DNA of 63,977 nucleotides, filler included. It is 5 parts of 5 records of this genome, joined end to end, with 100 filler letters (N's around TTAATTAATTAA, not from the genome) between each part and the next. Parts side by side here need not be neighbours in the genome. Positions count along the whole stretch, not along the records: positions 1 to 7,079 come from SRR31147125_24227; 4 more parts are not named here. One strand, 5' to 3'. A model generated the notes under the pieces. It was not told the DNA's origin, ran no database searches, and saw only the letters and a program-made list of their open reading frames with translations. This document shows positions 1 to 61,022 of this stretch, piece after piece. The translations under genes were made by a program, and so were the position numbers. Each line of letters begins with the position of its first letter. Within the stretch, counting starts at the first letter, position 1.

Positions 1-1
1 T

Positions 2-130
2 TATGGTGGAGATATTTCGAGAAAGAAAAAGCTTCTACAAAAGCAAAAAGAAGGTAAGAAAAGAATGAAACAGATAGGAAATGTAGAAATACCACAGGAG
101 GCATTTATCTCTGTTTTGAAGTTAGACTAA
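2..130 (+). CDS. lepA: Elongation factor 4 (LepA), C-terminal fragment
   Basis: Frame from nt 2 reads [42 protein letters not shown], the conserved LepA C-terminus. Not in the ORF track. Confidence 0.96.
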
Positions 131-155
131 TTTTAGATTAATAAAATATAAAAAT

Positions 156-191
156 AAATCCCAATTTACTTTATGAAGTAAATTGGGATTT
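156..191. terminator. Bidirectional intrinsic terminator
   Basis: AAATCCCAATTTACT-ttatga-AGTAAATTGGGATTT perfect 15-bp stem between convergent genes. Confidence 0.85.
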
Positions 192-204
192 TCTAATTTT
201 TGCT

Positions 205-2253
205 TTAATCAATATATGGTAAAGTAAGAATGAACTCAGTGCCTTTATCCTTTTCAGTAATAAGTCGGATATTACCACCAAACTCTTCCAGAATAGTTTT
301 TATTTCTGAAAGCCCTACACCTCTTCCAGCTATATCAGTTACGTTATCAGATGTAGAGAAACCTTCTATAAAAATAAAGTTGACTATTTCCTCATCTGAC
401 AATGAGCTAAGCTTGTCCTGAGTAATAAGATTATTATCTAATAGTTTTTCAGTGACTAGTGAAGGGTCAACACCGTAACCATCATCTGAAAATGTTATTA
501 TAATCCATTCCAAATCACGTTTAATAGAACAATTAATGTTTCCTGACTCCGGCTTTCCTCTTGCTACTCTTTCATATGCTGGTTCGATACCATGTATAAT
601 TGAGTTTCTAAAGAGATGCCCAATAGTATTTAAAATTGGGGAATATATTTCAAAATTTAACTTAATATCATCTCCCTCAACGATAAATGGATTAATCTTT
701 TTGTCAAAATACTCTGCTGCTGACTGTAAATATGATGCAAAGGTATTTAAATTATCTTTTAATGAAACGTAAGTCAGTTTATAAAGTTTATCTTTTAACT
801 CTAATATTTCCAAACCTGTAGTATTTGCACTAAGTTTAGAGCTTAATCCGATAATTTCAGATTTATCTATTAAAATTAGTTTTCGGTTATCGTCTAAATT
901 AAAATAATTTTCACCCAGTAACTTTTCTGATTCTTCTAAATCTCTTCTAAAACTTTCAACAAATGGGTGATTGCTTAATAAATCCTTAACCAAGGAAGTA
1001 GAAACTTTATCAAAATTCATTAACATTTCGTTTAATCTATCCTCAAGCTGATGCAAAGAGTTGGCTGTATAAAATAGGTAGTGTTGTCCAAAAGATCCTT
1101 TAAAAGTATGAACAGTTCTATATATTTTCTGTAAATCATTTTTCTCAATAGTTGTTTTAGCAGTTGTTCTAAGAATAAATGACTTAAATGATTGGTATAG
1201 TTCCTTGATAACAGCTTGGTTAGCTACTAAGTTAACAGTTACTCTTAATATTCTCTCTTCCTCTTTTAGCTTCTTCTCAAATAATACTTTTTCTGAAATA
1301 TCAGTTAGGATAACCATTATTTTTTTACTATTCTCTAATAGTTTATATTCTAACTTAATATGTCTTTCATTAATAATAGCCTTCTCAGGAAGTAGAGATA
1401 AATAAACTTTTAATCTTAACCTATTATTGGACGTAAAAGCATCAATGATATTTACCAGTGTTTTATGAATCAATACTTTATCAATTTTATCATCTTGAAA
1501 AACTAACTCAACAAAATTTCGTCCAGATGGAATACAATTAAGGATTGTTTCACATTCCAAACTGTACTCTCCATCAATTACTAAGTCAGTACCAAAAGAA
1601 AGAAAACCTTGCCCAGCATGATCTAGTAAAGTCGTTAATGAAGCTGTTTTATCTTCTAATTCTTTTTTAGTGTTGAGTAGATGTTCCTGTTGTTTATCAC
1701 TTATGTGTGTTAGTTTAACGATTTGACGTAAAAGTTTTTTATAACTTTTTCCTAATTTGAGGAACTCAGTAAAAATAGGAGATGTATCCTTTTCTTTGGA
1801 ATATTTTTTTAGGACATATTCAATATTGCCTAGTGTATCATTTTCAGTTTTGAATTCCAATGGAATTTTAAGCTTTTGATTCAAAGATATGATATTAAAA
1901 TTAAATCTAATATCTTCTTTAAACTCCTGAGCAATTTCTAACATATCTTTATTACTATCGTCATAATACCAATTTAAAACTGGCTCCTTACCATTCTCAT
2001 AAGCGTCTTCAAGTAAATCTATTACGTTCATTATACACTTTGTGCTACTTGTATTTAAATAGTGGAATGAAAACTCAAATACAGCTCTTTCATCTAGCTC
2101 ATTTAAATATCTCTCTATCCAATCGATAATCGGCTGATAAAATTTAAAAGCATTTTCAGGATAGGATTGTCCCTCAATTTTTAATACATTTTTTTTACGG
2201 TTAAAATATACTTCCGGGGTGCTGCCCGAACTCTCTATAAATAAATTATCCAA
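205..2253 (-). CDS. SiaC (DUF1987) domain fused to SiaD-type helix, PAS-like region, Hpt and CheA-like HATPase
   Basis: N-terminal ~124 aa paralogous to 3029-3412 (GQSYPENAFKFY, YLNTSS). Then YKKLLRQIVKLTHISDKQQ, Hpt motif HTFKGS, and CheA P4 boxes HLFRNSIIHGIE, DDGYG, GFST..GRGVGL. Confidence 0.85.
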   Translation of the reverse strand: MDNLFIESSGSTPEVYFNRKKNVLKIEGQSYPENAFKFYQPIIDWIERYLNELDERAVFEFSFHYLNTSSTKCIMNVIDLLEDAYENGKEPVLNWYYDDSNKDMLEIAQEFKEDIRFNFNIISLNQKLKIPLEFKTENDTLGNIEYVLKKYSKEKDTSPIFTEFLKLGKSYKKLLRQIVKLTHISDKQQEHLLNTKKELEDKTASLTTLLDHAGQGFLSFGTDLVIDGEYSLECETILNCIPSGRNFVELVFQDDKIDKVLIHKTLVNIIDAFTSNNRLRLKVYLSLLPEKAIINERHIKLEYKLLENSKKIMVILTDISEKVLFEKKLKEEERILRVTVNLVANQAVIKELYQSFKSFILRTTAKTTIEKNDLQKIYRTVHTFKGSFGQHYLFYTANSLHQLEDRLNEMLMNFDKVSTSLVKDLLSNHPFVESFRRDLEESEKLLGENYFNLDDNRKLILIDKSEIIGLSSKLSANTTGLEILELKDKLYKLTYVSLKDNLNTFASYLQSAAEYFDKKINPFIVEGDDIKLNFEIYSPILNTIGHLFRNSIIHGIEPAYERVARGKPESGNINCSIKRDLEWIIITFSDDGYGVDPSLVTEKLLDNNLITQDKLSSLSDEEIVNFIFIEGFSTSDNVTDIAGRGVGLSEIKTILEEFGGNIRLITEKDKGTEFILTLPYID

Positions 2254-2300
2254 TTTTTTCCCCCTCTATCAATTGTCAATAAGTGAATTAATAATATTTA

Positions 2301-2996
2301 TTAACAATTAACCTCTACTCTGTTTCTACCATTCTCTTTAGCTTTATAAAGAGCTTCATCAGCTCTAATGATAACATCTTCGACGGCTTCTCCATATTTA
2401 TACTGCGCAATACCAAAACTTGCTGTTATGTTTCCTACAGTTTGAAAAGAAAGATTAGCAATAGATCTTCTTAACTCTTCCGCATGTTTTTTTATCGATT
2501 CACAGTTAGAATTAGGAGAAATTATCATAAATTCTTCTCCTCCCCACCTACCAAGTATGTCATTTAATTTAACTTGTTTTTTTAGCAAATCAGAGAATTG
2601 AATTAATACTGAATCTCCAACGTGGTGCCCATATAAATCATTTACTTCTTTAAATTTATCAATATCAATCATTATGATTGATAAAGGCAAAGAATCTAAT
2701 TTAAAATTAGAAGCCTTATCAGCTAAAGTTTCATCAAGCTTTCTTCTATTATTTAGTTTAGTTAAACTATCAGTAATGATTAGTTCTTTTAAATCGTCTT
2801 GAGCAGAGATAAGTTTTCTCTGTAATTTATCACTAATAGTTGTTAGCTTAACTAATTGCCTAAATAATTTTTTATAATTTTTAGTTAATTCACAGTACTC
2901 CTTATGAAAATCCACATTATTATAATTTTCTTGACTTTCAATAATACTCATAGCTTTAGTTATAATCTTATTTTCATGCTGAAAATCTGATGACAT
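2301..2996 (-). CDS. siaD: SiaD-like diguanylate cyclase
   Basis: DSLTKLNNRR, DIDKFKEVND, GRWGGEEF. N-terminal helix YKKLFRQLVKLTTISDKLQ resembles the SiaD SiaC-binding stalk. Lies next to siaC. Confidence 0.85.
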   Translation of the reverse strand: MSSDFQHENKIITKAMSIIESQENYNNVDFHKEYCELTKNYKKLFRQLVKLTTISDKLQRKLISAQDDLKELIITDSLTKLNNRRKLDETLADKASNFKLDSLPLSIIMIDIDKFKEVNDLYGHHVGDSVLIQFSDLLKKQVKLNDILGRWGGEEFMIISPNSNCESIKKHAEELRRSIANLSFQTVGNITASFGIAQYKYGEAVEDVIIRADEALYKAKENGRNRVEVNC

Positions 2997-3028
2997 AAAT
3001 TACTCCTGACTTATTTGATATTATTTCA

Positions 3029-3412
3029 TTAACCAATTTTTACTGGAATAATGTTAAAGTTAAAATCAATATCCTCTTGAAATTCCTCTGCAACTTCCTC
3101 TAAGCTTTCATTGTCTTTGTCATAATACCAGTTCAAATGGAATTTTAACCCATCATTATAAGCATCCTCTAACATATCAATAATATTCATTACACATTTA
3201 GAGCTACTGGTATTTAAATATGAAAAATTAAACTCAAAAGTTGGTCCATCCGGAGAACTACTTAAAAAATCTTCAAGCCACTTTATAACTGGTTCGTAAA
3301 ATTTAAAAGAGTTTTCAGGATAGGATTGTCCTACAATCCTATAGGTATTTTTATCTAATAAAAACTCAACTTTTGGAGTTGATTTAGTTCTATCTATAAT
3401 TAAGTTATTCAA
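3029..3412 (-). CDS. siaC: SiaC family phosphoprotein (DUF1987)
   Basis: STPKVEF, GQSYPENS, YLNTSSSK (phospho-Thr motif), NWYYD; RBS GGAGG. Confidence 0.9.
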   Translation of the reverse strand: MNNLIIDRTKSTPKVEFLLDKNTYRIVGQSYPENSFKFYEPVIKWLEDFLSSSPDGPTFEFNFSYLNTSSSKCVMNIIDMLEDAYNDGLKFHLNWYYDKDNESLEEVAEEFQEDIDFNFNIIPVKIG

Positions 3413-3441
3413 AACACTACCTCCTGCAAGTATAAACTACA

Positions 3442-3984
3442 CTAGAATCTCCAAGCAAAAAAAGAAAAAGTATCATCCAATTTTTTAAATGCAAACTCAA
3501 TTTCTCTAGATGATTTGCGCGCCATGTCTATAAATCCAAGTCCTGCACTATTATCTTTGGAGTTAGAATTTTTTAGTATTTGGATCCTATATAGTTCTTT
3601 TAACTCTGTTTTATCAAGTTTTTTAATTCTATCGAGATGTTCTTTTAATATAATAGCATCTTGATGAAGTATTAAATTTCCAGAAGAAACAGAAAAAAAC
3701 TGACCTTTTTTGCTAATAGTGATTATTCCTGATTTATTAATTTTGTTGTATATTTCAGGAGACTCTAATTTGGATTCGATATATTTTTTGATATTTTGAG
3801 CTTGTTCAATATATACAGAAAATATATTGTGATTTCTAGATTTATTGCCAATCTCGAAATCAATATAAGCTTTAGTTGTATCTCCAAATTCTTCAATAAG
3901 TCCTTGTGAAAAAGGACCAGCAAAACTCATAAGAACGCCAAAATCATCTTGTATTTTTTTCAGCTCATACAGTCTTCTCAACAT
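3442..3984 (-). CDS. siaB: SiaB family protein kinase (copy 2)
   Basis: FAGPFSQ, VYIEQAQNI, SSGNLI, SAGLGFIDMARKS. The last codons are probably shifted by a T-run error (alternative end FFCLEILV* at 3437). Confidence 0.88.
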   Translation of the reverse strand: MLRRLYELKKIQDDFGVLMSFAGPFSQGLIEEFGDTTKAYIDFEIGNKSRNHNIFSVYIEQAQNIKKYIESKLESPEIYNKINKSGIITISKKGQFFSVSSGNLILHQDAIILKEHLDRIKKLDKTELKELYRIQILKNSNSKDNSAGLGFIDMARKSSREIEFAFKKLDDTFSFFAWRF

Positions 3985-4035
3985 TCAAATATTTCCTCCC
4001 AACCCTGTAAATACTTGAACTAGTTTTCTTCTAAG

Positions 4036-4576
4036 CTAAATGCAAACCTCGATGGAAAAAAATAAAAACTCTTCATCTATTCCCGTAAATGAATATCTAA
4101 TTTTTCCTTTTGCAAGTTTAGCCATTTCTACTAATCCAAGTCCATTTTTAACATTTTTATCCTTTAGGTATGTTTTATGTAATTTTCTTAGCTCTTTATA
4201 ATTTAACTCAATCAGAGCATCTATTTTTTTGCTTTAAAGGGATTGAATCTTCCTTTGTAATTAAATTTCCAGAGGAAACAATGTATTGATCATTAGCTTG
4301 ATCTATAAGAATAATTCCTGAGTCAAAAATTTTATCATAAATAAAAGGTTTATTTTTATTATGATTAACATATTCTTTTATATTTTGAGTTTGCTCAACA
4401 AAAACGGAAAAAACATCATACGTTTTAGACTTTTCCACTTTTTTTGTAGTAAGGTATTGTAGGATTGTTTCTCCTATTTCTACAATTATTCCCTGTGAAA
4501 AAGGACCTGTGAAAGTTAAAAGAGTATCTTGTTTTTTATTGAATCTTTTGTAAACACATAAATCATCTGTATTCAA
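4036..4576 (-). CDS. siaB: SiaB family protein kinase (copy 1), one frameshift in an A7 run near 4224-4230
   Basis: FTGPFSQ, FVEQTQNI, SSGNLI. Removing one A continues as KIDALIELNYKELRKLH...NGLGLVEMAKLAKGKIRYSF...FFSIEVCI* (stop at 4036-4038). Confidence 0.82.
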
Positions 4577-4701
4577 ATTACCCTCCTCCTTTCAAATAAA
4601 AATATGTCTAAGCAGAATTATTTATATTTTTATAGACACTACTAGAATTATAACATAGGAAAATCTATTTTTAAACAAAAAAAATAGAAAATATTATAAA
4701 A

Positions 4702-4754
4702 ATTGGCTGACTAAAACTCCATTTATTTAATCTGGATGTTTTTGGTCAGCCAAT
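4702..4754 (-). terminator. Probable terminator hairpin after the thioredoxin-like gene
   Basis: ATTGGCTGACTAAAA ... TTTTGGTCAGCCAAT inverted repeat. Confidence 0.6.
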
Positions 4755-4757
4755 AAA

Positions 4758-5294
4758 TTATCTAATTATTTTTAAAATTTCATCAACTAAAAATAGTTCA
4801 ATAGAAAAGAGGTATTTTCCTTTTCGATATTCATAAATCAGATCATTTTTTTTCGTTTCATTAGCTGAATCTAATTTAATTTTAAAATCAGGAAGAAACT
4901 CTTCATAAATCAAGGTTAGTTCATCTTCACCAATTCCTATATCCTCAACCATAACTGAAGGTATTTTTGAGTGTTCAGTATGTTTTTCCATATATTTCTC
5001 ATTTCCAGTTCTAGGAAAAATATAGAGGTTGATCTTATCATTTAACAATCGCATTTTTTCCAGAATAGGAATTAAAATTCTACTATCTGGGCAATAAATT
5101 TCAGCGAAAACAATAATATTGGTATTGATTTTAATCTCTTTAATTTTTTTAATTACATCGGGGTTTAGATTAGTTTTTTCGTAAATTTCCATCTGTTTCA
5201 ACTTGTAATCCTTTAATGATGAAATAAGATATTCGTTATAATCCCAAGCCTCTTCAAATTTAAGCATTTTATACACCTCCGAAAAATATACCAA
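4758..5294 (-). CDS. Thioredoxin-fold protein (single-Cys CPDS motif)
   Basis: IIVFAEIYCPDSRILIP and a cis-Pro-like KIPSV segment; resembles the Thioredoxin_9 family. Confidence 0.7.
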   Translation of the reverse strand: MVYFSEVYKMLKFEEAWDYNEYLISSLKDYKLKQMEIYEKTNLNPDVIKKIKEIKINTNIIVFAEIYCPDSRILIPILEKMRLLNDKINLYIFPRTGNEKYMEKHTEHSKIPSVMVEDIGIGEDELTLIYEEFLPDFKIKLDSANETKKNDLIYEYRKGKYLFSIELFLVDEILKIIR

Positions 5295-5364
5295 TATTTA
5301 CTATGAGTATAGTTTATTTTCTATCTTTTTTCAATAGTAAGTAACTAAATAATTATTTACTTAC

Positions 5365-7069
5365 TTACTCGATTTCAATATTATATGGATATAGTGTTGT
5401 AGGCTGTTTATTAATTGATTTAATAAATTTCAATTCAGAATCAATTTTATTAAGTTTACTTGATAAGAGTCCACCTGACATACGTTCTGCAAATTTAGTA
5501 ATAAACTCAAATGCATCAATGGGCTTTACGACCTCTATTACTTGATATTCCGTCAAAGATAATCTACTAGCTAATTGTTTAATTGTAGTATCAAGACCAC
5601 CGATCTCGTCAACTAGGCCATTATTGCTAGCTTCATCTCCAAGCCAAATTTTACCTTGAGAGATTTCTTCTAAGGAGGAGCTGTCGATAGCTCTTCCATC
5701 AATTACTCTTTGTTTAAATTCCTCATATATATTTTGCTGTGATTTTACCATAAGCTCAAGTTCTTCTTCATTTAATGGTCTTTGTAGTGAAAACATATCA
5801 GAATATTTCCCCTTTGTAATAGACTCCATATTAATACTTAAATTTTCAAATAATTCATTAACGTTAAATATTAAGCCGACTACTCCAATTGAACCAGTAA
5901 TTGTTGCTTCATCTGCAAATATTTTATCAGCATTTGATGCTATATAATATCCTCCAGATGCGGCAGTACTTCCCATTGAAACATAAATTGGTTTTTTAGT
6001 TTTTGCTTCAAGAATTTTGCGTAATTATCTCGGCCGAAAGAGCAACCCCTCCCGGAGAATTAACCCTAATTACAATTCCTTTTATATTTTCATCATTCAT
6101 AGCTCGATCAATCTCTTCAGTCATAACTTCAGGTGAGATAACATTATCACTTGGATTAGCCGGACTTCCGTAAATGATATTTCCTTCAGCATAAATAAGA
6201 GCTATCTTATTTTGATTTAACTTTACCTTAATAGTATTACTGTATTTAGTAATTGAAATTCTGTTTTTTAAGTTTCTTTTATTAATGAAATTATCAAAAT
6301 ACTCAAGAGAATCAACTATTCCGAACTCTTTTGCATCAAAAGAATCATTTCTAGCAAATACACCATTATAGATTTCATTTGTAATTAGTTCTCCCGAAAT
6401 ATCAAGTCTATTACCAATAAATTCACCAAGGTTACTGTATCTTTTATCATATATACGAACTATCTCTTCTTTTCTTTCGCTACTCATTTCGTCTAACACA
6501 AGGTGTTCACCGTATGTTTTATAATCGCCTGTATGAACAACCTGAAAATTGATACCAATATTATCAAGTAATGGCTTGAAATATGGAGTTGAATATGAGT
6601 ATCCAGTTAAATGTAGGTTAGTAGAGTGAGACGGAGTCATAACTGCTTCATCAGCTATCATGGCGAATCTTATATTGCCAGTATGTATTGAGTTTCCAAA
6701 TGCATAAACTTTTTTCCCCGTCGATTGAAACTCTTGTAACTTATTAATAATTTCTTCGGTGTGTGCTCCAGATAATTTTATTTTATCAAGGTCAATATAT
6801 ATTCCACTAATTTTATCATCAGTTTTAGCATTTTCAATAGATTTAATAACAGAGTATAGAGTTAGCTGAGATTCATTTAGTAACTCCATTAATTGCTTGT
6901 TTCCACGTGACTTTTCAGTTAAGCCATTTGGAAATGACAATTCAAGAAATGAATTTTCCTTAACAACTAAAGATTTTTCAGGCATGATATTATTCATTTT
7001 TTCTGAAATTAAAGTATTAACCACATAAAATATTAATGCAATCATTAATAATGTGGATAAAATAAACAT
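5365..7069 (-). CDS. sppA: Signal peptide peptidase SppA (67K type), split by a frameshift near 6010-6025; 5' end may be cut
   Basis: HTGDYKTYGE, VIRVNSPGG, VSMGSTAASGGYYIA, ITGSIGV, GKIWLG, GLVDEIGG. Confidence 0.92.
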
Positions 7070-7079
7070 AATGATTTTT

Positions 7080-7179
7080 NNNNNNNNNNNNNNNNNNNNN
7101 NNNNNNNNNNNNNNNNNNNNNNNTTAATTAATTAANNNNNNNNNNNNNNNNNNNNNNNNNNNNNNNNNNNNNNNNNNNN
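7080..7179. other. Artificial contig linker
   Basis: N run containing TTAATTAATTAA (stops in all frames); base composition changes across it. Confidence 0.98.
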
Positions 7180-30741: not shown

Positions 30742-30841
30742 NNNNNNNNNNNNNNNNNNNNNNNNNNNNNNNNNNNNNNNNNNNNTTAATTAATTAANNN
30801 NNNNNNNNNNNNNNNNNNNNNNNNNNNNNNNNNNNNNNNNN
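30742..30841. other. Artificial contig linker
   Basis: N run with TTAATTAATTAA. Confidence 0.98.
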
Positions 30842-31092
30842 GATCGCCTTTATTGAAATACGGGTTCCATGCGGTGCTGCATCCGGAATACCGGGCAGTG
30901 GCGGCCATATCCGTGTCGATAAGAGGAAAAAACCTGTGCAACACCCCTTTTTCAGGGCAGATTTAAAGGTGGTATATGGAAAAACATAGCACGATTGCCC
31001 GCAGACGATACGATACCGTTTTTAATTCAATGGCCGAGAGCGGAGACATTGATGACGCCATGCAGATAAAAGACCCGGATAGAAAGTAAAAC

Positions 31093-32551
31093 GTGACAGA
31101 GTCAACCCAAAAAATACTGCTTGTAGATGATGAGGAACGGCTGCTCGATTCCATATCCCGGCGGATATCCCTGCTCGGGCATACGCCTTTAAAAGCCACA
31201 TCCGGTCTGCAGGCCATTGAAATTGCAAAACAGACAGATGTTGATCTGGCCATTGTCGATCTGAATATGCCGGATATGGACGGTTTGGTAACCATCACCA
31301 AGCTTAAAGAAATTATCCCGGACCTCAAAACAATCCTGTTGACAGGGTATGGCAGTGAAAAAACAAAACAGGCGACCCAGGCATTGGGGGCCATCTATGT
31401 TGAAAAAGATGCCATGGGGGGCCTCTGGGATATTGTCAGGCAGTCCGTTAACAAAGGAAACGTGATTGTTATCAAACCGCCGTCCCATGCAGGCCAGACC
31501 ACTGCCGGGGACGGTGCATCCGGTCAGATTGAGATTTATGATGAGCTATCCTATCCCCCGGCGCATAAGCAAAAGGCCAGTGCCTTTGCCGATGAAAGGG
31601 GGCAACACCCCGTAACACTGCCGAAAATCATCGCCCAAACCCCTGAAATGCAGCGGCTGAAAAAATATCCGCAGGTTTTCGGAAATGGATTGTGCCATTG
31701 CCATCAAAGGTGAGATCGGAACGGGCAAAGAACTGGCCGCAAGAACCATCCACAGTTTAAGCCGTCGAAAACATCAGAAATTTCTGGCCTTTGACTGCGG
31801 ATGTTTCAGCAATGATTTTCAATTCAGCGAACTGGTGACCTTTTTTGATGAAACCCTGGGAAGGAAAAATTCCGAAGGGGATTTATCCGTAAATAAGGAT
31901 ATCCTCTTTTCCGGGACAATCCTGCTGGATCACATTGAAAATATGCCAAAGCAGATCCAGGAGGAAATGATGAATCTGCTTGAAGGCACCCTCCCTTCAC
32001 CTAAGGTGCTGACGGATATCCGGTTCATTGTCGTTGCCCATAAGAGCCTGGAGGAAAGGGTTTCAAACGGGACATTCCAAAAGGAATTATACCGCAGGAT
32101 ACAGGCCATTGAGCTCCGTGTCCCCCCGCTGCGGCAACGCACAGAAGACCTGCCTTTATTGTGCAGGTATTTTTTAAATCAATTCAATCGGGAACTGGGC
32201 AAGAAGATCAAAACCATTTCCCAAGAGGTCCTTCAAATCTTCAATACCTATGCCTTTCCCGGAAATGTGAGGGAACTCAAAGATATCATCGAATCCGCCG
32301 TCATGTCGGCAAGTGGCGATATCATACTGCCGGCCCATCTTCCTGAGAGGCTCACAGCCGCCCGTCCGGAGACGCCCCCCGAGGACAGCGCCTCCTTTCC
32401 CACCATCCAGCAGATGGAACAAAAACACATCCTCAAAGCCATTTCCATAACAGGGGGAAATAAGTCAAAAGCCGCTGAAATTTTAGGGATCAGCCGGGCC
32501 GCCCTATGGCGTAAATTACGCCTTATGGCCCAAGAGTCACAATCCCGTTAA
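31093..32551 (+). CDS. NtrC-type regulator (REC-AAA+-Fis HTH), frameshift in an A run near 31660-31666
   Basis: LVDDE, DLNMPDMDG; GEIGTGKEL, ELYRRI, FPGNVREL, GNKSKAAEILGISRAALWRK. Confidence 0.85.
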
Positions 32552-32829
32552 CGGCCCCGGACCCCGTCTGGCTCCGCCGGGCTGCTGCCCGGCGGCCCTG
32601 GCACGGACTTTCCAAAAACATGGGTTCCCAGCCTGGTATCTTTTTCAATTCCACTGGGACCCGTTTGCGGCGGGGCCATGACGGGAAAAATTATCTTATC
32701 TTTTAGGGGGCTATATAGTATAACCCAAAAGGATTTTTTCGGATCAAAGGCCGGGTTCGGCCAATGAGACTGCTTGCAGTTGACGGGTTTCTGTGAAAAT
32801 GCATTTCTCCATCTGAAAGGACATAGGAA

Positions 32830-35800
32830 ATGAATTCTACCACGTTCCGGCTCTTTATCTCATCCACCTTTAATGATTTTCAGCGCGAACGGGAAGTCCT
32901 CCAGGCCCGGGTTTTCCCAGAAATCAGAAAATATTGCCGGGGCAAAGGCCTTAAATTCCAGCCCATTGATCTGCGATGGGGGGTGAACACAGAGGCCCAG
33001 ATGGACCAGAAAACCCTGGAACTCTGCCTGGGCGAAGTACAGGCGTGCAAAACCCATCCCTCCCCCAATTTTTTGATTATGATCGGGGACCGCTACGGCT
33101 GGGTCCCTCTCCCCTATGCCATTGAAAAAACTGAGTTTGAGACCCTGGTGGCCATGATGGTCCCCGCTGAAAAAAAGGACCTGCTGGAATGGTATAGGCT
33201 GGATTACAATCAGATACCTGTTTCCTATCTTCTTAAAAAACGGCGTAAGGAATACCTGAATCCAGAAAAATGGGCCACAGTGGAAAAGAGGCTCAGAGAA
33301 CTTTTTCAAACGGCCCGGGCTCAATGGCTGCTTTCAGAGGATCAGCAGCGAAAATACTTTATGTCTGCCACAGAAGCTGAAGTGGAAGAAGGGATTATCC
33401 CCTATCTGAACCTTACCCCATTTCAAGCCGCGCTTCTCAAGGAAAAACCCCTGCTTCAGAAAACCGACGCTGAGAATGTCTTTGGACTGTTACGGAATAT
33501 TGAGATCAAAAGCCGTCAATCAGACAAGTTTATGGACGAAGGGCCTGAAAACGGTCAAGGATTTTCTAAAGACTATGTAAGGGCCCAGCAGTTTAAGGAC
33601 CGGGTCAAGGCTGTTCTGCTTGAGGAAAATACCCTTTATGTAAATGCAGCACAGGCGGATCCGGAAACCCTGGTTGAAGATTATCTTATTCCCTTTAAGG
33701 ATCGGGTCACCGCTTTTTTAAAAGCACAGGTGGATGCCCAGAAAATCCGGGAGGCGTATTCATCCCCCCTTGCCAGGGAAGAAGAGGCCCAGGGGTATTT
33801 TGCAGCCCAGAAGCGAAAAAACTTTATGGGGAGGGAATCCGCTCTCAGGGAGATTAAAACCTATCTTGGCGGAAATGACAACAGGGCTTTGATCGTATCC
33901 GGACCGTCCGGCAGGGGCAAATCGGCCCTCATGGCCCAGGCGGTCAAGCAGGCAAAAGAAGCGGGCCATAGGGTCGTTTACCGTTTTATCGGCGCCACCC
34001 CCAATTCGAGTTCCAGTAAAGAGATCCTGACTTCAATTTTCAAAGAACTGGGTATAGATGTTCAGGACAGAACCGGGGAGGAGATACTGATGTTCGGTAT
34101 CGGGCAGGAGGTTGAGTCTTTTGAAGCGTTCAGCGAGCGTATCAAATATCGACTCATGTGGCAGTTAAAGGAAAATTTTGTCATCTTCATTGATGCCGTG
34201 GACCAATTGGCCCATGAAGAGCAGTTCCTCTGGCTTCCAAGGGAACTGCCTGAAAATATAAAAATAATTCTATCGTCTCTCAATGATGAAAATTATCCTG
34301 AAGACAGCCAATACTACAAGACCCTGGTTAAACGCGGCCATGACAATATCCTGTCGGTACCGCCTCTCTCCGATCCCTTAACCCTGGTTTACAATCTGCT
34401 GAAAAATGAGCATAGAACCATTCAGAAGCACCAGGAGGCATATTTTATTCATCAATACGATAAATCAGGCCGCTCTCCCCTTTATATTGTCATGGCGGTA
34501 CAGACAATGAAACATTGGCAGAGTTTTGATACAGTGGACGGAAACCCAAAAGGAGATCCCAACCACAGGCTTCCGGAGAGCCAGCAAGGAATCATCGGGG
34601 AATTTTTCACCCACCTCCATGAACGCTTTTACCATGATCCTGACTTTGTCTATAAAACCCTGGGGTTTTTCCACGCATCCAGGGACGGCTTGGGCGAGGA
34701 TGAATTCATAGATCTTGTCAATACGGATGAAGGGTTTATACAACAGCTGACACCGGAAAGCTTTCATAAGAACACCACAAAAAAGCTGCCCCTTGTCTTA
34801 TGGACCCGTCTCTATGCTCAGCTTAAGCCTTTTTGGGCCAAAAAAGCCAGGACAATGAAGAACTGCTCTATTTTTCCCACCGGGAATTTGGCGCGGTCGT
34901 GAACAAGCTGTCCAAGAGCAAAAAAGAACATGAAAATATTATAAAGGCCGCACGGCAGCTCATCAGCAGGTATCAGGGGAAGGGCTTTGATGAAAACAGA
35001 TGGGGCAAATTATATGCCATTCTTAGCACTGAGTATGATTTGCGTTATTCAAAGGAGAATCATGATCTTCATATGATGCGGGAGGCCCATGTGGATTTTA
35101 TCACGGGCCTGGAAAATAAAACCTGGATAGAAAATTATATATCATATTTAAATCATGTGGGTTTCGAACACAGTGCCTATAACAGAACCCTTCAGGAGGC
35201 AATCTGGAATGATTACTATCTGCTGGTGAGTGAAAAACTTCATTTTGAAAACCCGGGCCCATGGGCGGAACGATATAGCACTGCATTGATTAATAGAGCC
35301 GCTTCTCATTCCGCAGTGAATCAGATCGCAGAGGCCATCCGCCTCCAGGAAAAATGTATTGCCCTGGTCACCCCGCTCCATGGGAAAAATCCGGAGGGAT
35401 GGACAGAAAAATATGCCACCATACTGAATAATTTAGCAGATTCGCATAGCAAACTGAACCAGCCTGAAAAAAGCATTCTTTTTGAAGAAAAGTCCCTTGA
35501 GATACGCAAAAAACGCTATAATGCAGATCCTGACAAGTGGGCGGAAGCCTATACCTGTTCGATGAATAATCTTTCCCTTTCCTATTATTCTGTTAACAGA
35601 CTTGAGGATGCAATTGGTCTTCAAAAACACTGCCTTGGGATACGCCAGAAAAAATATAGGTCAGATCCTGAGAAGTGGGCAGAAGATTATACCCTATCAT
35701 TAAACAATTTAGCCCATTTTTATTTGAGTATTAATCGGGTTAAGGATGCCATTGAATTTTTGGAAAAGGGGTTTGAAATACTCCAAACACTCTATGAGCA

Positions 35801-37914
35801 ATCTCCGGACAAGTGGGCGAAGGATTTTACCAGAATATCGTCCAATCTATATGATTCTTATAGAAAGGCTGAACGGGTTGGGGATGCCGTTGATATTTGT
35901 GAAAAGAGCAGGGAAATACTGGCGGATCTTTATCAAAGAGATCCGGACAGGTGGGTGGAGTACTATGCTGCAAGCATCACAAACCTGGCCATTTCTCATA
36001 GCGATGCCGGCAATCATTCCGAGGCCGTTGCACTGGGAGAAGAGAGCCTTTCAATACTTAAGCCACGATTCGGGGCCTATCCGGACCGGTGGGCGGCCGA
36101 TTATATTCATGCCTTGAATGGCCTTGGATACGTTTATAAAGGTGCTGGCAACTATTCAAAGGCCATTTCACTGGGAGAAGAGACCCTGTCAATACTTGAA
36201 CCTTTATATGAAACGAATTCGGAGGCGTGGGCGAAAGACTATTACAGGGCGTTACATAATCTGGCCGCTTATTACAATAGCGCGCAACGGCTGCCTGAGG
36301 CCATTTCTCTGGGAGAAAAGAATCTGGCAATACTTAAATCCCTTTACGAGACGAATTCAGAGGCATGGGCAGAAGATTATATCCAGGCGTTCAATAATCT
36401 TGCTTTTTATTACGAGAATGCCGGGCAATTATCCGAGGCCATCGTAAAGAGAGAAAAAAGCCTGGCCATACATAAGACAGGTCAAAAAAATGATCCGGAC
36501 AGGTGGGCCCGGGCGTATACCATAAGCGCCAATAAGCTGATCCATTATTATAAGTCAGCTCACAGGATTTCAGAAGCCATACGGCTTGGGGAGCATATTC
36601 TTGCCATACTTGAACCCCTTTATGAAACGAATCCTGATAAATGGGTTGAAAGCTTAACCCGGGAGCTGAATAACCAGGCCACTTTATACAGGAATGTTCA
36701 TCGTGAAATGGATGCCATCGGGCTGGAAGAAAAAACCTCTGGATACTCAAATCTTTTTATGGAGCCGACAGGAACAGGTGGGCCGAACCCTATACCCGGG
36801 CGTTGAATAATCTCGCCCTGGCTTATGGTAAAACAAACCGTGAAACAGATGCCATTGACCTCTTTGAAAAAAGTCTTGGTATACGAGGGAAATTGTACCG
36901 GTCAGACCCTGATAAGTGGGCGGAGAAATATACCAAGAGTTTGAGGAACTTGGCCTCGTCTTACAGGAAGGTGAACCGTGGGACTGAGGCCATTGATCTT
37001 GGAGAACAAAGCCTTAAGATACTCAAACCCCTTTATGAGGCTGAGCCTGATGATTGGGCAAAAGACTATATCGATTCATTAAATAATCTTGCCTTTTCCT
37101 ATGGTCGCAGTAACCGGGAAAAGGAAGCCATTGATCTTGGAGAAAAAAGTCTTGGGATACTTAAACCCCTTTATGAAGCAAACCCGACCCATTGGGCAGA
37201 AGCCTATTCCCGCGGCTTGAATAATCTGGCCTTTTCCTATGACCGTTCCGACCGGCAAACGGATGCCATTGATTTTCTTGAAAAGAGCCTTGCCATCAGG
37301 CAGGATCTTTATGAAACCAATCCGGATAAATGGGGTGATGACTATATTACGGCCTTGAATAACCTGGCCTATTTTTATGATAGGGGCAATGATACTTTAA
37401 AGGCCATTGCCTTTGCTGAAGAGAGCTTTGAACTGCTCAAATCATTATATAAAGCAGATCCGGATCGGTGGGCGAAGGATTATACCTGGACGGCGGATAA
37501 GCTGCGCCTATATTATCAAAAAGCTGACCAGGGCCCAGAGGCCGCCGGGTTTAAAAAAGAGTATCACAGTACTTGAACCCCTTTATGAAGCAGATCCCGG
37601 CAGATGGGCGAAATACTATACCGATGCATTGATACAATTGGCTCTTTTTTACTATATTGACAACCAGGTCCCCAAGGCCGTTGAGCTGGAAAAGAAGAGC
37701 CTTGCCATACTCAAACCCCTTTATGGGGAAAATCCTGAGGTGTGGGCGGAAGACTATGCCAAAACATTGGTTTCTCTGGCCTCTTCCTACAAAAATCTTA
37801 ACCGGATTGCGGAGGCCACTAAACTTTCTGAAACGGGTCTTGAGGTGTTCAAACCCCTCTATGCCGCAGATCCTGACAGGTGGGAGAAAAGCTATTTTGC
37901 CATAGAGAATTTCC
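32830..37914 (+). CDS. DUF4062 - STAND/NACHT-like ATPase - TPR array; one gene split into four ORFs, 3' end cut
   Basis: RLFISSTFNDF..ERE..DLRWGV..GDRYGW; Walker A GPSGRGKS; Walker B IFIDAVDQ; LLYFSHREF; at least 19 46-aa TPR units. Frameshifts at homopolymers near 34830, 36730 and 37553. Confidence 0.85.
35247..37914 (+). repeat. Array of 138-bp (46-aa) TPR-coding repeats
   Basis: Consensus xPDxWAxxYxxxLNNLAxxYxxxxRxxEAIxLxEKSLxILKPLYE counted 19 times plus a partial unit. Confidence 0.85.
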
Positions 37915-38014
37915 NNNNNNNNNNNNNNNNNNNNNNNNNNNNNNNNNNNNNNNNNNNNTTAATTAATTAANNNNNNNNNNNNNNNNNNNNNNNNNNNNNN
38001 NNNNNNNNNNNNNN
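37915..38014. other. Artificial contig linker
   Basis: N run with TTAATTAATTAA. Confidence 0.98.
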
Positions 38015-38029
38015 GACGGAACTGGCAAA

Positions 38030-38189
38030 AGAAGCTGTGCTTCGGGTATGAGAAACGATAGACAGTTTTTATAATCTACTTTTGCTTTTTATTAGAAACC
38101 AGCTTCATGTGATCTGTATAACAGCTATACCGGACACGCGAAGCACAGCTTCTCGGGTTAGTTGCGTCCCAAATATTATTTGGGACGCA
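38030..38189. repeat. REP/REPIN-like nested palindromic element
   Basis: 15-bp inverted repeat AGAAGCTGTGCTTCG (38030-44) / CGAAGCACAGCTTCT (38139-53), then hairpin TGCGTCCCAAATA-t-TATTTGGGACGCA (38163-89). Confidence 0.6.
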
Positions 38190-38476
38190 GATTGATAATT
38201 GATGGCGGTCACAGCTCATCTTTTTTTATTTTTTCTTGATCTCCCACCCCGCACACACGCAACCACAATAAATCCAAAATTTTGAACATCATTATTTTTT
38301 TGAATATAATTGAGCGTTTTGAGCGTTTTAGGGGAATAATATAATCCCATTCGTGTTATACTCTACGTATCTGATTCGAAATTCTAAATACTTTACATAT
38401 AAAAATTGTTTGTAACATAAAGAAATATTACCATAATTAAAAATAGATCGAACTTTTTTTCACAATCATTATCTAC

Positions 38477-38617
38477 ATGTTCATTGCCTTCTCTATTGTT
38501 CTCCCTGCCAAAGCCACTTCCCATAAAGATATTGTCGATACCGCAGTTTCAGCTGGTTGTAATCAAGTTCGTCTTTTTACCCATAACAAGAACATTACAA
38601 AGGAGAAAAAACAGTGA
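38477..38617 (+). pseudogene. Fasciclin (FAS1) gene relic
   Basis: MFIAFSIVLPAKATSHKDIVDTAVSAG...: signal-like segment plus the FAS1 opening motif, then unrelated sequence and a stop. Confidence 0.5.
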
Positions 38618-39300
38618 AAAAATTAATAAAATTGGGATTTATGTTTGTTGCACTTTTCAGCCTCGCACTTGTAGGTTGTTTTGATGGTGATAATCCAATC
38701 ATACCGCATCCAGGAGCGGCACACGTTCTCGTCGCTCATGCATCACCTGATGCACCGGGAGTTGATTTGTTGGTGGATGACGATAGAGTAGGTACAAATC
38801 TCACTTATCCGAACAATACCGGTTACCTGGATGTCAGACCCGGCACGAGAAATATCAAGGTCAATGTGACCGGTACAAATACGACTGTCATAGAAGCAGA
38901 CCTCGAGTTTGACGGACGGAAAAATTATTCCATATTTGCTGTGGATGCGGTGGCGACTATAGCACCATTGGTTCTGGAAGATAATCTGTCCAGGCCTGCC
39001 AGCGGCAAAGCCCATGTTCGTTTCATACACCTCTCCCCTGATGCACCGGCAGTGGATATTACATTGACCGATGGTACGGTAGTGTTTGCCAATGTCATTT
39101 TCAAGGGAAGCATTGATTTTACACCTTTGGATGCCGCAACTTATGATCTTCAGGTTCGTCTTGCAGGTACCAGTACAGTTGTTCTAGAACTGCCTGGCAT
39201 CACATTGGAATCCCAAAAAATATATACGGTCTTTGCCAGGGGATTTGTGAGCGGTACAGGAACACAAGCTTTGGGCGCTGAAATCATCGTCAACAAATAA
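38614..39300 (+). CDS. DUF4397 lipoprotein
   Basis: Lipobox LVGC; two HxSPDAPxVD motifs. Confidence 0.85.
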   Translation: MKKLIKLGFMFVALFSLALVGCFDGDNPIIPHPGAAHVLVAHASPDAPGVDLLVDDDRVGTNLTYPNNTGYLDVRPGTRNIKVNVTGTNTTVIEADLEFDGRKNYSIFAVDAVATIAPLVLEDNLSRPASGKAHVRFIHLSPDAPAVDITLTDGTVVFANVIFKGSIDFTPLDAATYDLQVRLAGTSTVVLELPGITLESQKIYTVFARGFVSGTGTQALGAEIIVNK

Positions 39301-39367
39301 GATTGAGTTAATTACTCACATATTTTAATTAAAATACATCATACTGCCAAGGTTACCATATAATTTC

Positions 39368-39402
39368 AAAAGGGTCAAATGACCGGTACATTTGACCCTT
39401 TT
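39368..39402 (+). terminator. Terminator hairpin
   Basis: AAAAGGGTCAAATG-N7-CATTTGACCCTTTT. Confidence 0.7.
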
Positions 39403-39426
39403 TACCATTTAGTGGAGTTTTAGAAA

Positions 39427-40434
39427 ATGGCCAATCAAAAACATGTTCTTATTATAGGAGGCGGTATAAGCGGACTCGTGGCTGCCCATATGCTTGACGC
39501 AAAAGGATTTCCGGTCACAATCATCGATAAAGGTCGTGGCATAGGCGGCAGGCTTGCAACCCGGCGAATCAACTTTCAGGATAAAGAGGGTGTCTTTGAT
39601 TATGGCGCACAATATTTTACAGTCCGTTCAAAAGAGTTTAAAATACTGGCAGATGAGTGGCTCAGGATCAATAAATGCGAGCCGTGGAGTAAAGAATTCT
39701 ATACAATGCGAGAGACATCACCTACTGATAAAACTATGAAATTTAAAGGCAGGATCAGTCTTCGCGACATTGCCAAACATCTGGCAAAAAGTTTTTGTTT
39801 TGAAACAAGTACCCGTGCTGTGCATTTTGCCTGGCAGCAAGACAAATGGACGGTCACAACAGAATCAAAGAGGACATTGAACGCAGATATTTTGTTATTA
39901 ACGCCTCCGGTTCCGCAAATTCTCACCCTATTTGACACCTCGAATATAGAAATAGCAAAACATATCCGTGAAAAATTAGACCAGGTTACTTACAATCCCT
40001 GCATTGCCATGTTAGCGTTACTGAATGGCAAAAGTGCCATTCCGGCTCCCGGAGGCATTCGGATGGCAGGTGAACCAATATCCTGGATGGCGGACAATGC
40101 ACAAAAAGGTATTTCTCCACATGGCCAGGCAGTTACCATTCATGCCGGAGCTGCATTTAGTGAGTCTAATTATAATAAAGATGAAGAATGGCTGGCACAA
40201 CAGATCCTGGCTCATAGTCAACGCTGGCTGGGTGTAAATGTACTCACATATCAGATACACCGCTGGAAATATAGCCAACCAACACATATCTATGGCGAAC
40301 CATTTCTTTACCTGGAAAATCCCGGGCCACTTTATTTGGCTGGTGATTCTTTTACTGGTGGACGGATCGAAAGCGCGGCTCTTTCTGGTTTAAAAACGGC
40401 GAACCAGATTGTTTCACAATTCACGGTATCATGA
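39427..40434 (+). CDS. Renalase-like FAD-dependent oxidoreductase
   Basis: GGGISG, DKGRGIGGRLATRR, FDYGAQYFT, HRWKYS, AGD..GGRIESAALSG. Confidence 0.9.
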   Translation: MANQKHVLIIGGGISGLVAAHMLDAKGFPVTIIDKGRGIGGRLATRRINFQDKEGVFDYGAQYFTVRSKEFKILADEWLRINKCEPWSKEFYTMRETSPTDKTMKFKGRISLRDIAKHLAKSFCFETSTRAVHFAWQQDKWTVTTESKRTLNADILLLTPPVPQILTLFDTSNIEIAKHIREKLDQVTYNPCIAMLALLNGKSAIPAPGGIRMAGEPISWMADNAQKGISPHGQAVTIHAGAAFSESNYNKDEEWLAQQILAHSQRWLGVNVLTYQIHRWKYSQPTHIYGEPFLYLENPGPLYLAGDSFTGGRIESAALSGLKTANQIVSQFTVS

Positions 40435-40606
40435 CTTGATATCGTATCATTCTTCTCTGTTCATATAGATGGCAAATTAGTTTGTCCATCAACCAGGGCT
40501 ATCTTAAAAAGTAGCGCCTGGCTCGAACGAAAGCTTTGGCGACAGGAAAAAAACATATTCACATTCTTCCTGGTCATAGATTTTACTTGTTGTTAACAAG
40601 ATACAT

Positions 40607-42172
40607 TCATAAAGGCTTGACAATCCCCAGTTTGCTCATTTTATAACGAATCGTTTGTTCGGAAACACTTAAAGCCCGGGCGGCTTTTGATTGATTCCAT
40701 TGACAGTTTGTTAATACTTTACGAATAATTTGCTCTTCGTAATCATTTAATCTTTCTTCAAGAGATTTGTGTTCTGTTTCTGCTTCAATAACGGCATTCA
40801 CTTTTTTAAATTCCGTTTTTAAATCCTGTGGCAACAACGCTGATTTTATCATTGTGTCATTAGGATTGGCCATGGTTACAAGGCGCTCTACAAAATTTTC
40901 CAATTCTCTTATATTGCCAGTCCATAACCGGTTTTTCATAAACTCGAGTATTTCGGGGTGAAAGGATTCTATATTTTTACCCTGTTCATGAACAAACTTT
41001 TCCAGAAAATGACATGCCAAAACCGGGATATCTTCCCGGCGCTCCTTCAATGTTGGAACAGGTATAGGATAAACATATAGACGATAAAAGAGATCTTCGC
41101 GAAATTGCTGCTTCTCAACCAGTTTTTGTATTTTCATACTCGAGGCTGTTATAATGCGGACGTCTACTTTGCGAATCTTGTTACTGCCTACCGGTCTTAT
41201 TTCTCCTTCCTGCAGCATTCGCATCAGTTTTATCTGCATATCAGCAGGCATATTAGCGATTTCATCCATAAAAATAGTACCCATATGCGCTTCTTCAAGC
41301 AAACCCTTCCTGTCATAGTTCGCCCCGGTGAACGCACCACGTACATGGCCAAACAATTCACTTTCGATCAGATGGGCTGGAATAGCTCCACAATCAATGG
41401 CTACAAAAGGACCGCTACTCCGTTGACTGAATTTGTGTATGGCTCGTGCCAGAAGCTCTTTGCCTGTTCCGCTTTGACCTTCCAGCAGAACCCGAACATC
41501 ACTGCGGGCAGCCGCCTCAACCGCTTTTAGTAAAACACGAAACTGTTTACTTTTTCCTATCAAACCCAGTTTTTCATATTTTGCCTGCAAGGTTGATTCT
41601 GGTAAGGGTGCCACAAAATATTCCTGGATCTTTTGCACATTGTGTAAATATGGCGCTGAAATGATAGCGATTTTTTGCAAATACGTTAAATCCGCCTCAC
41701 TGAAGGATTGTTTCTTTTTAAATAGAATGAGTGTACCTAATATGATGTCCTCAGAAGTTAACGGCACACCAATAACAGCCTTGACATCAATATCCCCAAA
41801 GCGTACCTTGCTGAAGCGAGGATCTTTTTTGATGTTGGGACTTGATAAACTCTGATGATGATGCATGATCCACCCGCTCAATTGATTGTGCAAAACCTGA
41901 TAGCGGCTCTCAGAAGAATCGACACCTTCTTTATGCACGGTTTTTACGGTTTGATGTGTGCGTGGATTGACCATCAGAATGAACGCGGAATCAGCATGTA
42001 ACAGACCCTCTGCTTTTTGCGACACGATTCTCAATATTTCTGCAAAATCGTTTTGTTGACCTAATACAACAGCAAAATCGATCAAACAACCAGAGTATTT
42101 CGTTCTGAAGCTACACTCCTTTTTAGTACAATTCTGCACTAAGGTCCCATCCTGTTTATTAGTTAATTGCAT
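40607..42172 (-). CDS. GAF-domain sigma-54 activator
   Basis: GQSGTGKEL, ESELFGHVRGAFTGA, DLFYRL, WTGNIREL, Fis HTH. Start codon uncertain. Confidence 0.93.
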   Translation of the reverse strand: MQLTNKQDGTLVQNCTKKECSFRTKYSGCLIDFAVVLGQQNDFAEILRIVSQKAEGLLHADSAFILMVNPRTHQTVKTVHKEGVDSSESRYQVLHNQLSGWIMHHHQSLSSPNIKKDPRFSKVRFGDIDVKAVIGVPLTSEDIILGTLILFKKKQSFSEADLTYLQKIAIISAPYLHNVQKIQEYFVAPLPESTLQAKYEKLGLIGKSKQFRVLLKAVEAAARSDVRVLLEGQSGTGKELLARAIHKFSQRSSGPFVAIDCGAIPAHLIESELFGHVRGAFTGANYDRKGLLEEAHMGTIFMDEIANMPADMQIKLMRMLQEGEIRPVGSNKIRKVDVRIITASSMKIQKLVEKQQFREDLFYRLYVYPIPVPTLKERREDIPVLACHFLEKFVHEQGKNIESFHPEILEFMKNRLWTGNIRELENFVERLVTMANPNDTMIKSALLPQDLKTEFKKVNAVIEAETEHKSLEERLNDYEEQIIRKVLTNCQWNQSKAARALSVSEQTIRYKMSKLGIVKPL

Positions 42173-42444
42173 TTTTCAAACCTCACCATTAAAAAACGAA
42201 TAAAAGTCCTTTTCTTCTTCGCTTTAAAAAATGGTCGTAAATTTGGATACGTATTTGCCGCCGCTGCCAGAGCTTTCCTTTTGACACAATCCCGATCCTC
42301 GTCTTTAGTCGCTATTTCATGAGACAAGAATTTAATAGTCACCATTCTCCTGAGCCTGGTATCTTCTGCCTTGTAAACAACACCTATGCCACCCTGGCCA
42401 AGCTTTTCAAGAATCCTGTAATGTGAAACAACTTTGCCGATCAT
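42163..42444 (-). pseudogene. Decayed Ser/Thr kinase N-lobe
   Basis: MIGKVVSHYRILEKLGQGGIGVVYKAEDTRLRRMVTIKFL, then degenerates; no catalytic C-lobe. Confidence 0.75.
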
Positions 42445-50071: not shown

Positions 50072-50098
50072 GACGCTAGAAATATTAAGGATAATAAA

Positions 50099-61015: not shown

Positions 61016-61022
61016 AACATGA

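Follow-up and report, generated by a model that had tools for sequence, protein, structure and literature searches.

The gene at positions 205–2253, minus strand, of the window (the whole stretch of 63,977 nucleotides analysed here) encodes a single protein in which a SiaC domain is fused to a CheA-like histidine kinase. Its N-terminal SiaC domain is followed by a coiled-coil stalk bearing the motif K-x3-I-S-D-x2-Q, as does the stalk of SiaD, the diguanylate cyclase to which SiaC binds in Pseudomonas aeruginosa. Established here are the anatomy of the protein, an intact reading frame, the motif's homology to that of SiaD and, in other genomes, the linkage of siaC to similar kinase genes. The best explanation of the whole, which we consider reasonably probable, is that Thr68 of the SiaC domain controls a clamp on the stalk of the kinase to which it is fused, two SiaB paralogues being encoded upstream and the SiaA phosphatase and response regulator presumably elsewhere.

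Architecture and integrity of the fused gene

The open reading frame (ORF) has 682 open codons and begins with TTG, with a G-rich ribosome-binding site ahead of it. Its parts, all on the minus strand, are as follows.

1873–2253, minus strand: SiaC (DUF1987) domain, residues 1–127; Thr68 codon at 2050–2052
1762–1872, minus strand: junction and N-terminal helix, residues 128–164 (alignment; AlphaFold helix at 137–152, with a low predicted local distance difference test score, pLDDT)
1675–1743, minus strand: SiaD-type stalk motif, residues 171–193 (K180, I184, S185, D186, Q189), the predicted SiaC docking site by homology to the stalk of P. aeruginosa SiaD (PaSiaD)
1294–1602, minus strand: PAS-like domain, residues about 218–320 (AlphaFold and Foldseek)
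916–1221, minus strand: Hpt (P1-like) helical bundle, residues about 345–446; His382 codon at 1108–1110
214–885, minus strand: CheA-type P3 (about 457–500) and P4 ATPase (about 501–680) (PDB CheA matches; N, G1 and G2 boxes)

The initial annotation had described one ORF with a full SiaC domain and an intact Y-L-N-T-S-S segment, and both are there: Pfam PF09345 matches residues 6–123 (E 2.6e-41, 140.5 bits against a cut-off of 24.5) over profile positions 1–119 of 120, and the segment occupies residues 65–70. Residues 1–121 align without gaps to P. aeruginosa SiaC (PDB 6kko/7e6g, E 5.5e-27), with Thr68 in place. In an alignment of 16 SiaC sequences Y65, N67, S69, S70, K72 and D79 are invariant, and position 68 is Thr or Ser in all 16. 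The score against the NCBIfam equivalog model NF038265 (129.4 bits) lies below the cut-off of 150; judged on these profiles, the domain is a member of the SiaC family and not an equivalog of P. aeruginosa SiaC.

The kinase half likewise has the parts ascribed to it. No PAS domain is matched by any Pfam sequence profile in the fused protein; the AlphaFold model of residues 200–345 (pLDDT 90.2) finds PAS folds in Foldseek, the best being FlrB (7yrt, probability 1.00, E 1.7e-5, template modelling scores 0.55/0.72), with further matches to FixL and LOV proteins. Pfam places an Hpt domain at residues 365–424 with 21.1 bits, below the 24.6-bit cut-off, which relatives clear (29.3 bits in L004, 26.1 bits in P0001); the His of its H-T-F-K-G segment (His382; H-T-F-K-G-S in the initial annotation) is kept without exception in the 24 stalk kinases aligned, and the model has helices at 346–365, 371–390, 394–412 and 431–446. 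Residues 457–679 match P3–P4 of Thermotoga maritima CheA (4xiv, E 2.1e-40; also 1b3q). Within this region residues 457–500 align with P3 of both structures (helices 464–477 and 481–494; no Pfam H-kinase_dim match), P4 alone matches 1i5d (E 1.5e-39) with its N, G1 and G2 boxes located, and Pfam HATPase_c covers residues 544–680 (E 1.3e-12).

The fused protein shares with T. maritima CheA (4xiv/1b3q) an Hpt domain whose His accepts the phosphoryl group, a P4 of CheA type and, ahead of this ATPase, a helical hairpin. Unlike CheA, it has an N-terminal input of its own (stalk and PAS-like domain) and lacks P2 and CheW (P5). The gap between Hpt and P3 is only about 17 residues, which leaves no P2; the chain ends at residue 682, two residues past P4, and a CheW domain gave no match in it even at E values up to 10. 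According to the accessible part of PMC10782961, CheW is a defining core domain found in 100% of CheA sequences; because it is absent here, the fused protein is, by its sequence, not a CheA. The NCBIfam CheA models score far below their cut-offs (157.6 against 950, and 97.4 against 793 bits).

The closest relatives locate the point of fusion. In searches of 5.8 billion proteins and of 1.84 billion cluster representatives, the best matches cover only residues about 130–200 to 682; the second search returned 39,899 proteins at E <= 0.001, with 1,413 at <= 1e-30. The PAS-like–Hpt–P3–P4 module is common and stands behind HAMP, CBS, REC, PAS/GAF, Cache and 7TMR-DISM sensors. The motif K-x3-I-S-D-x2-Q occurs in 21 of the 262 relatives fetched, in every one of them 40–54 residues from the N terminus and with no sensor domain before it. 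Such stalk kinases come in two sizes, of 521–556 residues, or of 705–736 residues with a C-terminal CheX-like domain. Residue 128 of the fused protein aligns with Met1 of eight free-standing stalk kinases and with Met1 of the SiaD encoded in the window (alignment A1). By this alignment, therefore, the fused protein is a SiaC of 127 residues followed by a complete stalk kinase of 555 residues, with a linker of a few residues at most, and the gene is an end-to-start fusion of neighbouring siaC and stalk kinase genes.

The CheX-like domain of the longer stalk kinases (L001:5920–8070 and others of 705–736 residues) follows the ATPase, where CheA has CheW. It scores 23–30 bits with Pfam CheX, around the 27-bit cut-off, and may be a built-in CheY phosphatase.

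Several searches were directed at other fused proteins. PF09345 was absent from all 120 relatives listed among the 5.8 billion proteins. Residues 1–215, compared with proteins of 375–1194 residues, gave 996 candidates, none of which scored, and the SiaC domain, compared with proteins of 224–2000 residues, gave 156, again with none scoring, which is weak evidence. Among the best 150 of the 39,899 cluster-representative matches no best stretch begins before residue 129, the second stretch of five long proteins lying outside the view. A metagenome scan by exact 8-residue words, which reaches close relatives, found best matches spanning 461–679 or 4–124 and none spanning both. Thirteen of 30 ESM Atlas matches to the whole protein were viewed and belonged to Hpt, HATPase_c and sensor families with no SiaC, which is a lead only; the scores for residues 1–215 (<=0.88) were uninformative.

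Could the fusion be an accident without function, arising in one population when the siaC stop codon and spacer were recently lost, or by a fault of assembly, so that the halves act as if apart or the product is impaired? We regard this as unlikely, while noting what speaks for it: none of the searches gave a further fused copy, the junction is minimal (about 0–6 linker residues), the DNA was found in one sample only, and the window assembly of this contig contains four homopolymer indels. The contig of run X1 (8,498 bases, at an even depth of 27.5) covers positions 1–7079 with 0 substitutions and five indel letters, all in homopolymers at four places (after 2259, after 3456, at 4224 and after 6014). 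Of the sampled words, 0.98 occur in run X1, which is the probable source run, so that its contig is a second assembly and not an independent sample. Applying its differences mends the second SiaB (179 residues) and an S49 peptidase (571 residues). The window assembly therefore has homopolymer errors, none of them within 205–2253, where the second assembler returns an identical ORF. The SiaC and kinase halves lie in one frame, and both other frames stop no more than 9 codons from the junction, so that one indel alone could not have produced the fusion. The conserved residues of both halves are all intact. In addition, the one SiaC per stalk that the fusion supplies matches the two SiaC per motif of the SiaD dimer (7e6g; PMC8457831, accessible part). 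A frameshift masking a stop codon at the junction was considered separately and rejected, the halves sharing one frame and the second assembly concurring, and the absence of a stop or frameshift between SiaC and kinase on which the initial annotation depended is thereby borne out, as far as a second assembly can do so.

The stalk motif and its association with siaC

The helix at residues 171–189 (window 1687–1743) is identical at 15 of 19 positions to that of the neighbouring SiaD (2820–2876), as the initial annotation had seen. In the structure of the P. aeruginosa complex, Thr68 of SiaC inserts between the parallel stalk helices of SiaD and bonds S82 and Q86, and the other PaSiaD contacts are R74, K77, V78, R80, I81, D83, R84, Y85, M88, R90 and D91; phosphorylation of Thr68 prevents the binding, and the PaSiaD dimer has two motifs, with four SiaC bound (PDB 7e6g; PMC8457831, from the part accessible to us). 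K77, I81, S82, D83 and Q86 correspond by alignment to K180, I184, S185, D186 and Q189 of the kinase; R74, V78, R80, R84, Y85, M88, R90 and D91 are not identical there. As to a second, distal SiaC-binding motif like that of PaSiaD, the stalk has a conserved N-terminal helix (E10), which lacks I-S-D-x2-Q.

When two stalk fragments (residues 128–215) were modelled together with two SiaC domains, the predicted 2:2 complex obtained 0.83 and the highest of three controls 0.30. That mark was attained by 51 of the 78 solved complexes and by 2 of the 108 mismatched pairs, counts which are only rough for a multi-copy job; since 7e6g is already solved, the pass may be recall of that structure, and so a sign of likeness and not of binding. 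At least 93% of contacts are common to the runs, with partner pLDDT of at least 89. In the predicted complex Thr68 lies on the I-S-D-x2-Q motif, contacting residues 54–62 of the stalk fragment. The predicted interface comprises residues 173, 176–177, 180–191 and 193 on the stalk and residues 31, 35–37, 40, 66–69, 71–73, 75–76, 79, 102–103, 106–107, 110–111 and 114 on SiaC, the latter overlapping the published contact set. In alignment A1 (window 1489–1872 and relatives) I-S-D stands at a distance of 24 or 31 residues from the Q-G-F-L of the PAS-like domain; this difference of exactly seven residues, one heptad, fits signalling along a continuous coiled coil.

A tethered SiaC might instead act mainly in trans, docking on the neighbouring SiaD's stalk or on that of a different kinase dimer and thereby coupling kinase and cyclase in one complex, or might be a tethered substrate or decoy of SiaB, with the kinase stalk gated by the free SiaC. 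Cross-binding is plausible, given that the two stalk helices are identical at 15 of 19 positions and that the two SiaC copies, 55% identical overall, have the same contact residues, and a PaSiaD dimer takes up four SiaC on its two motifs (PMC8457831, accessible part). The AlphaFold monomer of the whole protein, moreover, gives no confident docking in cis (stalk pLDDT 40–66, predicted template modelling score 0.46). Against this stand the unfused operons described below, which put siaC directly before the kinase gene, often with no SiaD-type cyclase beside it, and the predicted complex, in which the stalk fragment touches SiaC with its first residues (128, 131–133 and 135–136), as would fit a short covalent link. 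Action chiefly in trans is, in our estimate, a little less likely than an accidental fusion, and we continue to favour docking of the tethered SiaC on its own kinase.

The motif was then considered in its genomic setting. A locus scan over one genome per species gave 340 relatives, and the best 80 loci were kept for all linkage counts. Stalk-first genes without a sensor domain were found at 18 of the 80 loci (14 kinases and four stalk-PAS-GGDEF-HD-GYP proteins), and the motif or a close variant of it was present in 18/18 of these against 0/62 of the sensor-bearing genes, a distribution beyond chance resemblance. A siaC gene lay on the same strand at 14/18 stalk-first loci and was present at 0/62 sensor-bearing ones (Fisher p 2e-12, a value that is overstated, as the loci are partly orthologous operons). 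At 12 of the 18 it was −11 to +34 nucleotides upstream, and nine of those 12 genes encode kinases. These counts bear on the view that the shared helix is a generic coiled-coil linker, a ligand of the PAS-like domain driving the kinase and the SiaC domain being unrelated to its control. In most relatives PAS-Hpt-P3-P4 does come after HAMP, CBS, REC, Cache or other sensors, so that many kinds of helical input can drive the module. A generic linker would nevertheless not be expected to carry the motif in sensor-less genes and not in sensor-bearing ones, to match the SiaC-contact residues of PaSiaD, or to have siaC linkage limited to the motif-bearing genes, and we think this view very improbable.

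Unfused siaA-siaB-siaC-stalk-kinase operons occur in Campylobacterota, Gammaproteobacteria, Desulfocapsa, Bacteroidales and Bacillota (L001, L002, L003, L005, L010 and L015; also L006, whose contig begins at siaC with siaA and siaB out of view, and L012, in which no siaB was seen). Their usual order is a solute-binding protein, a SiaA-like HAMP-PP2C protein, SiaB, SiaC, the kinase, one or two CheY-like genes and a GGDEF gene. They resemble the window in the stalk motif, in the PAS-like, Hpt, P3 and P4 parts (kinase part 31–34% identical) and in having siaC directly upstream of the kinase part; they differ in that siaC is a separate gene and that most of the kinases have the CheX-like tail and are followed by the CheY-like and GGDEF genes, whereas the window protein has neither a CheX tail nor a receiver gene beside it. 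A receiver gene follows the kinase at 12 of the 14 kinase loci, and the contig ends there in the other two; a SiaD-type cyclase is often not beside the siaC–kinase pair. We found no characterised example of these operons in the literature. The GGDEF proteins that end them (L001:8891–9835, L003:8931–9956 and like genes) have 140–170 N-terminal residues with no Pfam match at E <= 0.001.

Four kinase loci have no visible siaC. The gene of L017 runs off its contig, L009 has siaA-siaB then the kinase, L060 has siaA then the kinase, and L004 has none of siaA, siaB and siaC. One SiaC gene is present on another contig in each of the genomes of L004, L009 and L060; none was seen in the genome of L017. 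Among 401 sampled genomes of one phylum a SiaC match was present in 12, and the 10 full-length loci examined had none fused (0/10), with open frames of 126–186 residues. The gene next to SiaC in these 10 loci was SiaD in three, SiaA in three, and in two a stalk-PAS gene that phmmer does not identify as a kinase.

Two further arrangements were noted. A third output class adjoins siaC, in which the stalk motif and PAS-like domain are followed in one chain by GGDEF and HD-GYP domains.

L007:5920–7527, L013:5956–7578, L022:2386–3948 and L027:5971–7590, also L138 and L139: genes for stalk-PAS-GGDEF-HD-GYP proteins

At L029:1–981 a single ORF fuses SiaA to SiaB, joining a PP2C (SpoIIE) part to a SiaB-like DUF6272 part; siaC, an HD-GYP gene, a stalk kinase and a CheY-like gene lie downstream of it.

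Proposed mechanism and its wider meaning

Our working model takes the stalk kinase to be a soluble histidine kinase of CheA-like type, built of Hpt, P3 and P4 with neither P2 nor CheW, whose sole input would be the N-terminal coiled-coil stalk with its SiaC-binding motif, followed by the PAS-like domain. When unphosphorylated, the tethered SiaC would clamp the I-S-D-x2-Q segment of the dimeric stalk through its Thr68 loop and so fix the register of the stalk; the fixed register would set autophosphorylation of His382, probably on, by analogy with the effect of SiaC on SiaD. A SiaB kinase, of which two paralogues are encoded upstream, would phosphorylate Thr68 and release the clamp as an off-switch, and a SiaA-type PP2C phosphatase, presumably encoded elsewhere, would reverse this. 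The phosphoryl group would pass from His382 to a CheY-like regulator, again likely to be encoded elsewhere. Fusion would make the clamp intramolecular or intradimeric, and the free SiaC and SiaD of the same operon would form a parallel branch of cyclic di-GMP (c-di-GMP) signalling. In this scheme we infer SiaC docking onto the stalk, the sign of the control, docking in cis as opposed to trans, and the partners; gating of the kinase by Thr phosphorylation would follow from the same model.

The initial annotation had placed the SiaC switch and its docking helix on one chain and proposed Thr gating of a His kinase alongside SiaD, a proposal supported by four computed lines: the motif homology, the linkage, the alignment of residue 128 to Met1 and, subject to the recall mentioned above, the predicted complex. 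Its description of the protein as self-contained holds for the switch and docking helix, which do share a chain, and does not hold for the system as a whole, which would still need SiaB, a SiaA phosphatase and a response regulator.

A number of observations weigh against the proposed clamp, besides the overstated linkage statistic and the possible recall of 7e6g mentioned above. The fused ORF is supported by one sample only. No fused copy was found elsewhere in any search, so that selection for the fusion is not demonstrable and it may be a recent stop loss in one population. The kinases closest in build to the fused one, those without a CheX tail (L004 and L060), have no siaC within reach, and in the sample of 401 genomes of one phylum a kinase lay within 1.5 kb at 0/10 SiaC loci. 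Finally, the 7,079-base contig contains no receiver gene and no PP2C (SiaA) gene, although for so short a contig the latter does not imply absence from the genome.

The closest known counterpart is SiaABCD of P. aeruginosa, which likewise has a SiaB-family kinase, a SiaC with Thr68 in Y-L-N-T-S-S and a target stalk with K-x3-I-S-D-x2-Q; a SiaD-like cyclase is present in the window too. The window differs in that its predicted second target is a histidine kinase covalently fused to SiaC, in having two SiaB paralogues and no SiaA on the contig, and in that its SiaC and SiaD fall below the NCBIfam equivalog cut-offs (129.4 against 150 and 197.1 against 290 bits). The cyclase SiaD is, to our knowledge, the one proven target of SiaC. 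When two proteins are fused in one gene, this is classically taken as evidence that they work together, and here the fusion agrees with the linkage across several phyla and with the conservation of the residues that hold Thr68 of SiaC. A comparison may also be drawn with the STAS-type switches on diguanylate cyclases (HptB-HsbR-HsbA/HsbD; BgrSTUWV). Unlike the protein in the window, these presumably have cyclases or sigma-factor partners as their targets, and we know of no case in which the target is a histidine kinase. They are similar in that a small Ser/Thr-phosphorylated protein regulates a signalling enzyme (PMC8457831, in the part accessible). The same part of that source suggests that DUF1987 proteins modulate adjacent proteins, and the accessible part of PMC9239204 puts c-di-GMP enzymes and a chemoreceptor, and no kinases, under predicted PP2C/STAS control in Campylobacterota. 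In the literature searched on SiaC/DUF1987 we found no report of action on a histidine kinase, nor of such a link from Ser/Thr to His-Asp signalling.

It is tempting to generalize, and we give an even chance to the following: that SiaABC-type Thr switches are general plug-in inputs docking on K-x3-I-S-D-x2-Q, a stalk motif that at least three classes of output have in common (SiaD cyclases, GGDEF-HD-GYP proteins and CheA-like histidine kinases), that the window protein is a natural single-chain Ser/Thr-gated His kinase, and that two SiaB and two SiaC allow c-di-GMP synthesis and a phosphorelay to be driven separately from one locus. If so, a Ser/Thr partner switch would feed straight into a His-Asp phosphorelay and link two signalling chemistries. 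The findings point to a wider group of SiaC-gated kinases, so far unstudied, for which the fused protein would be a handy one-chain object for learning how SiaC binding travels down the stalk.

Genes around the fused gene and composition of the window

The genomic context of the fused gene is the first contig alone (1–7079, 7,079 bases), on which every gene except the first is on the minus strand.

2–127, plus strand: 3' end of a converging gene (frame translation)
156–191, no strand: two-way terminator-like hairpin between the fused kinase gene and the 3' end of the converging gene, serving both
205–2253, minus strand: fused SiaC-stalk-PAS-Hpt-P3-P4 gene, 682 residues (ORF, domain searches and models)
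2301–2996, minus strand: SiaD-like diguanylate cyclase, 231 residues (GGDEF E 5.4e-45; stalk helix 2820–2876)
3029–3412, minus strand: free-standing SiaC, 127 residues (55% identity to the fused SiaC domain)
3442–3984, minus strand: SiaB-family protein kinase, 180 residues (DUF6272; NCBIfam SiaB_fam_kinase 164.2 bits against an 85-bit cut-off)
4036–4576 (about), minus strand: second SiaB paralogue (frameshift at homopolymer 4224 in the window; intact, 179 residues, in the run X1 contig)
4758–5294, minus strand: thioredoxin-like gene
5365–7069, minus strand: split S49 peptidase (intact S49 signal-peptide peptidase of 571 residues once the run X1 differences are applied)

The contig thus holds two siaB genes, siaC and a siaD-like gene of a SiaABCD operon, with no PP2C gene on it. 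The closest PDB match of the SiaD-like cyclase is PaSiaD (7e6g_A), the alignment continuing through the stalk. One extra A after 3456 in the run X1 contig alters the last residues of the first SiaB. The last 42 residues of the converging gene resemble the C terminus of elongation factor 4 (LepA).

The window as a whole consists of five contigs with N spacers between them (1–7079, 7180–30741, 30842–37914, 38015–54694 and 54795–63977), whose G+C contents are, in order, 28.6, 48.7, 47.1, 39.5 and 42.8%. Gene content also looks mixed, with spore-germination genes on contig 2 and Bacteroidota-like outer-membrane and glycan genes on contigs 4 and 5, and the window may, from its range of G+C (28.6–48.7%) and this content, be a mixed bin. 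The runs of N, at 7080–7179, 30742–30841, 37915–38014 and 54695–54794, surround a 12-base linker with stops in all frames.

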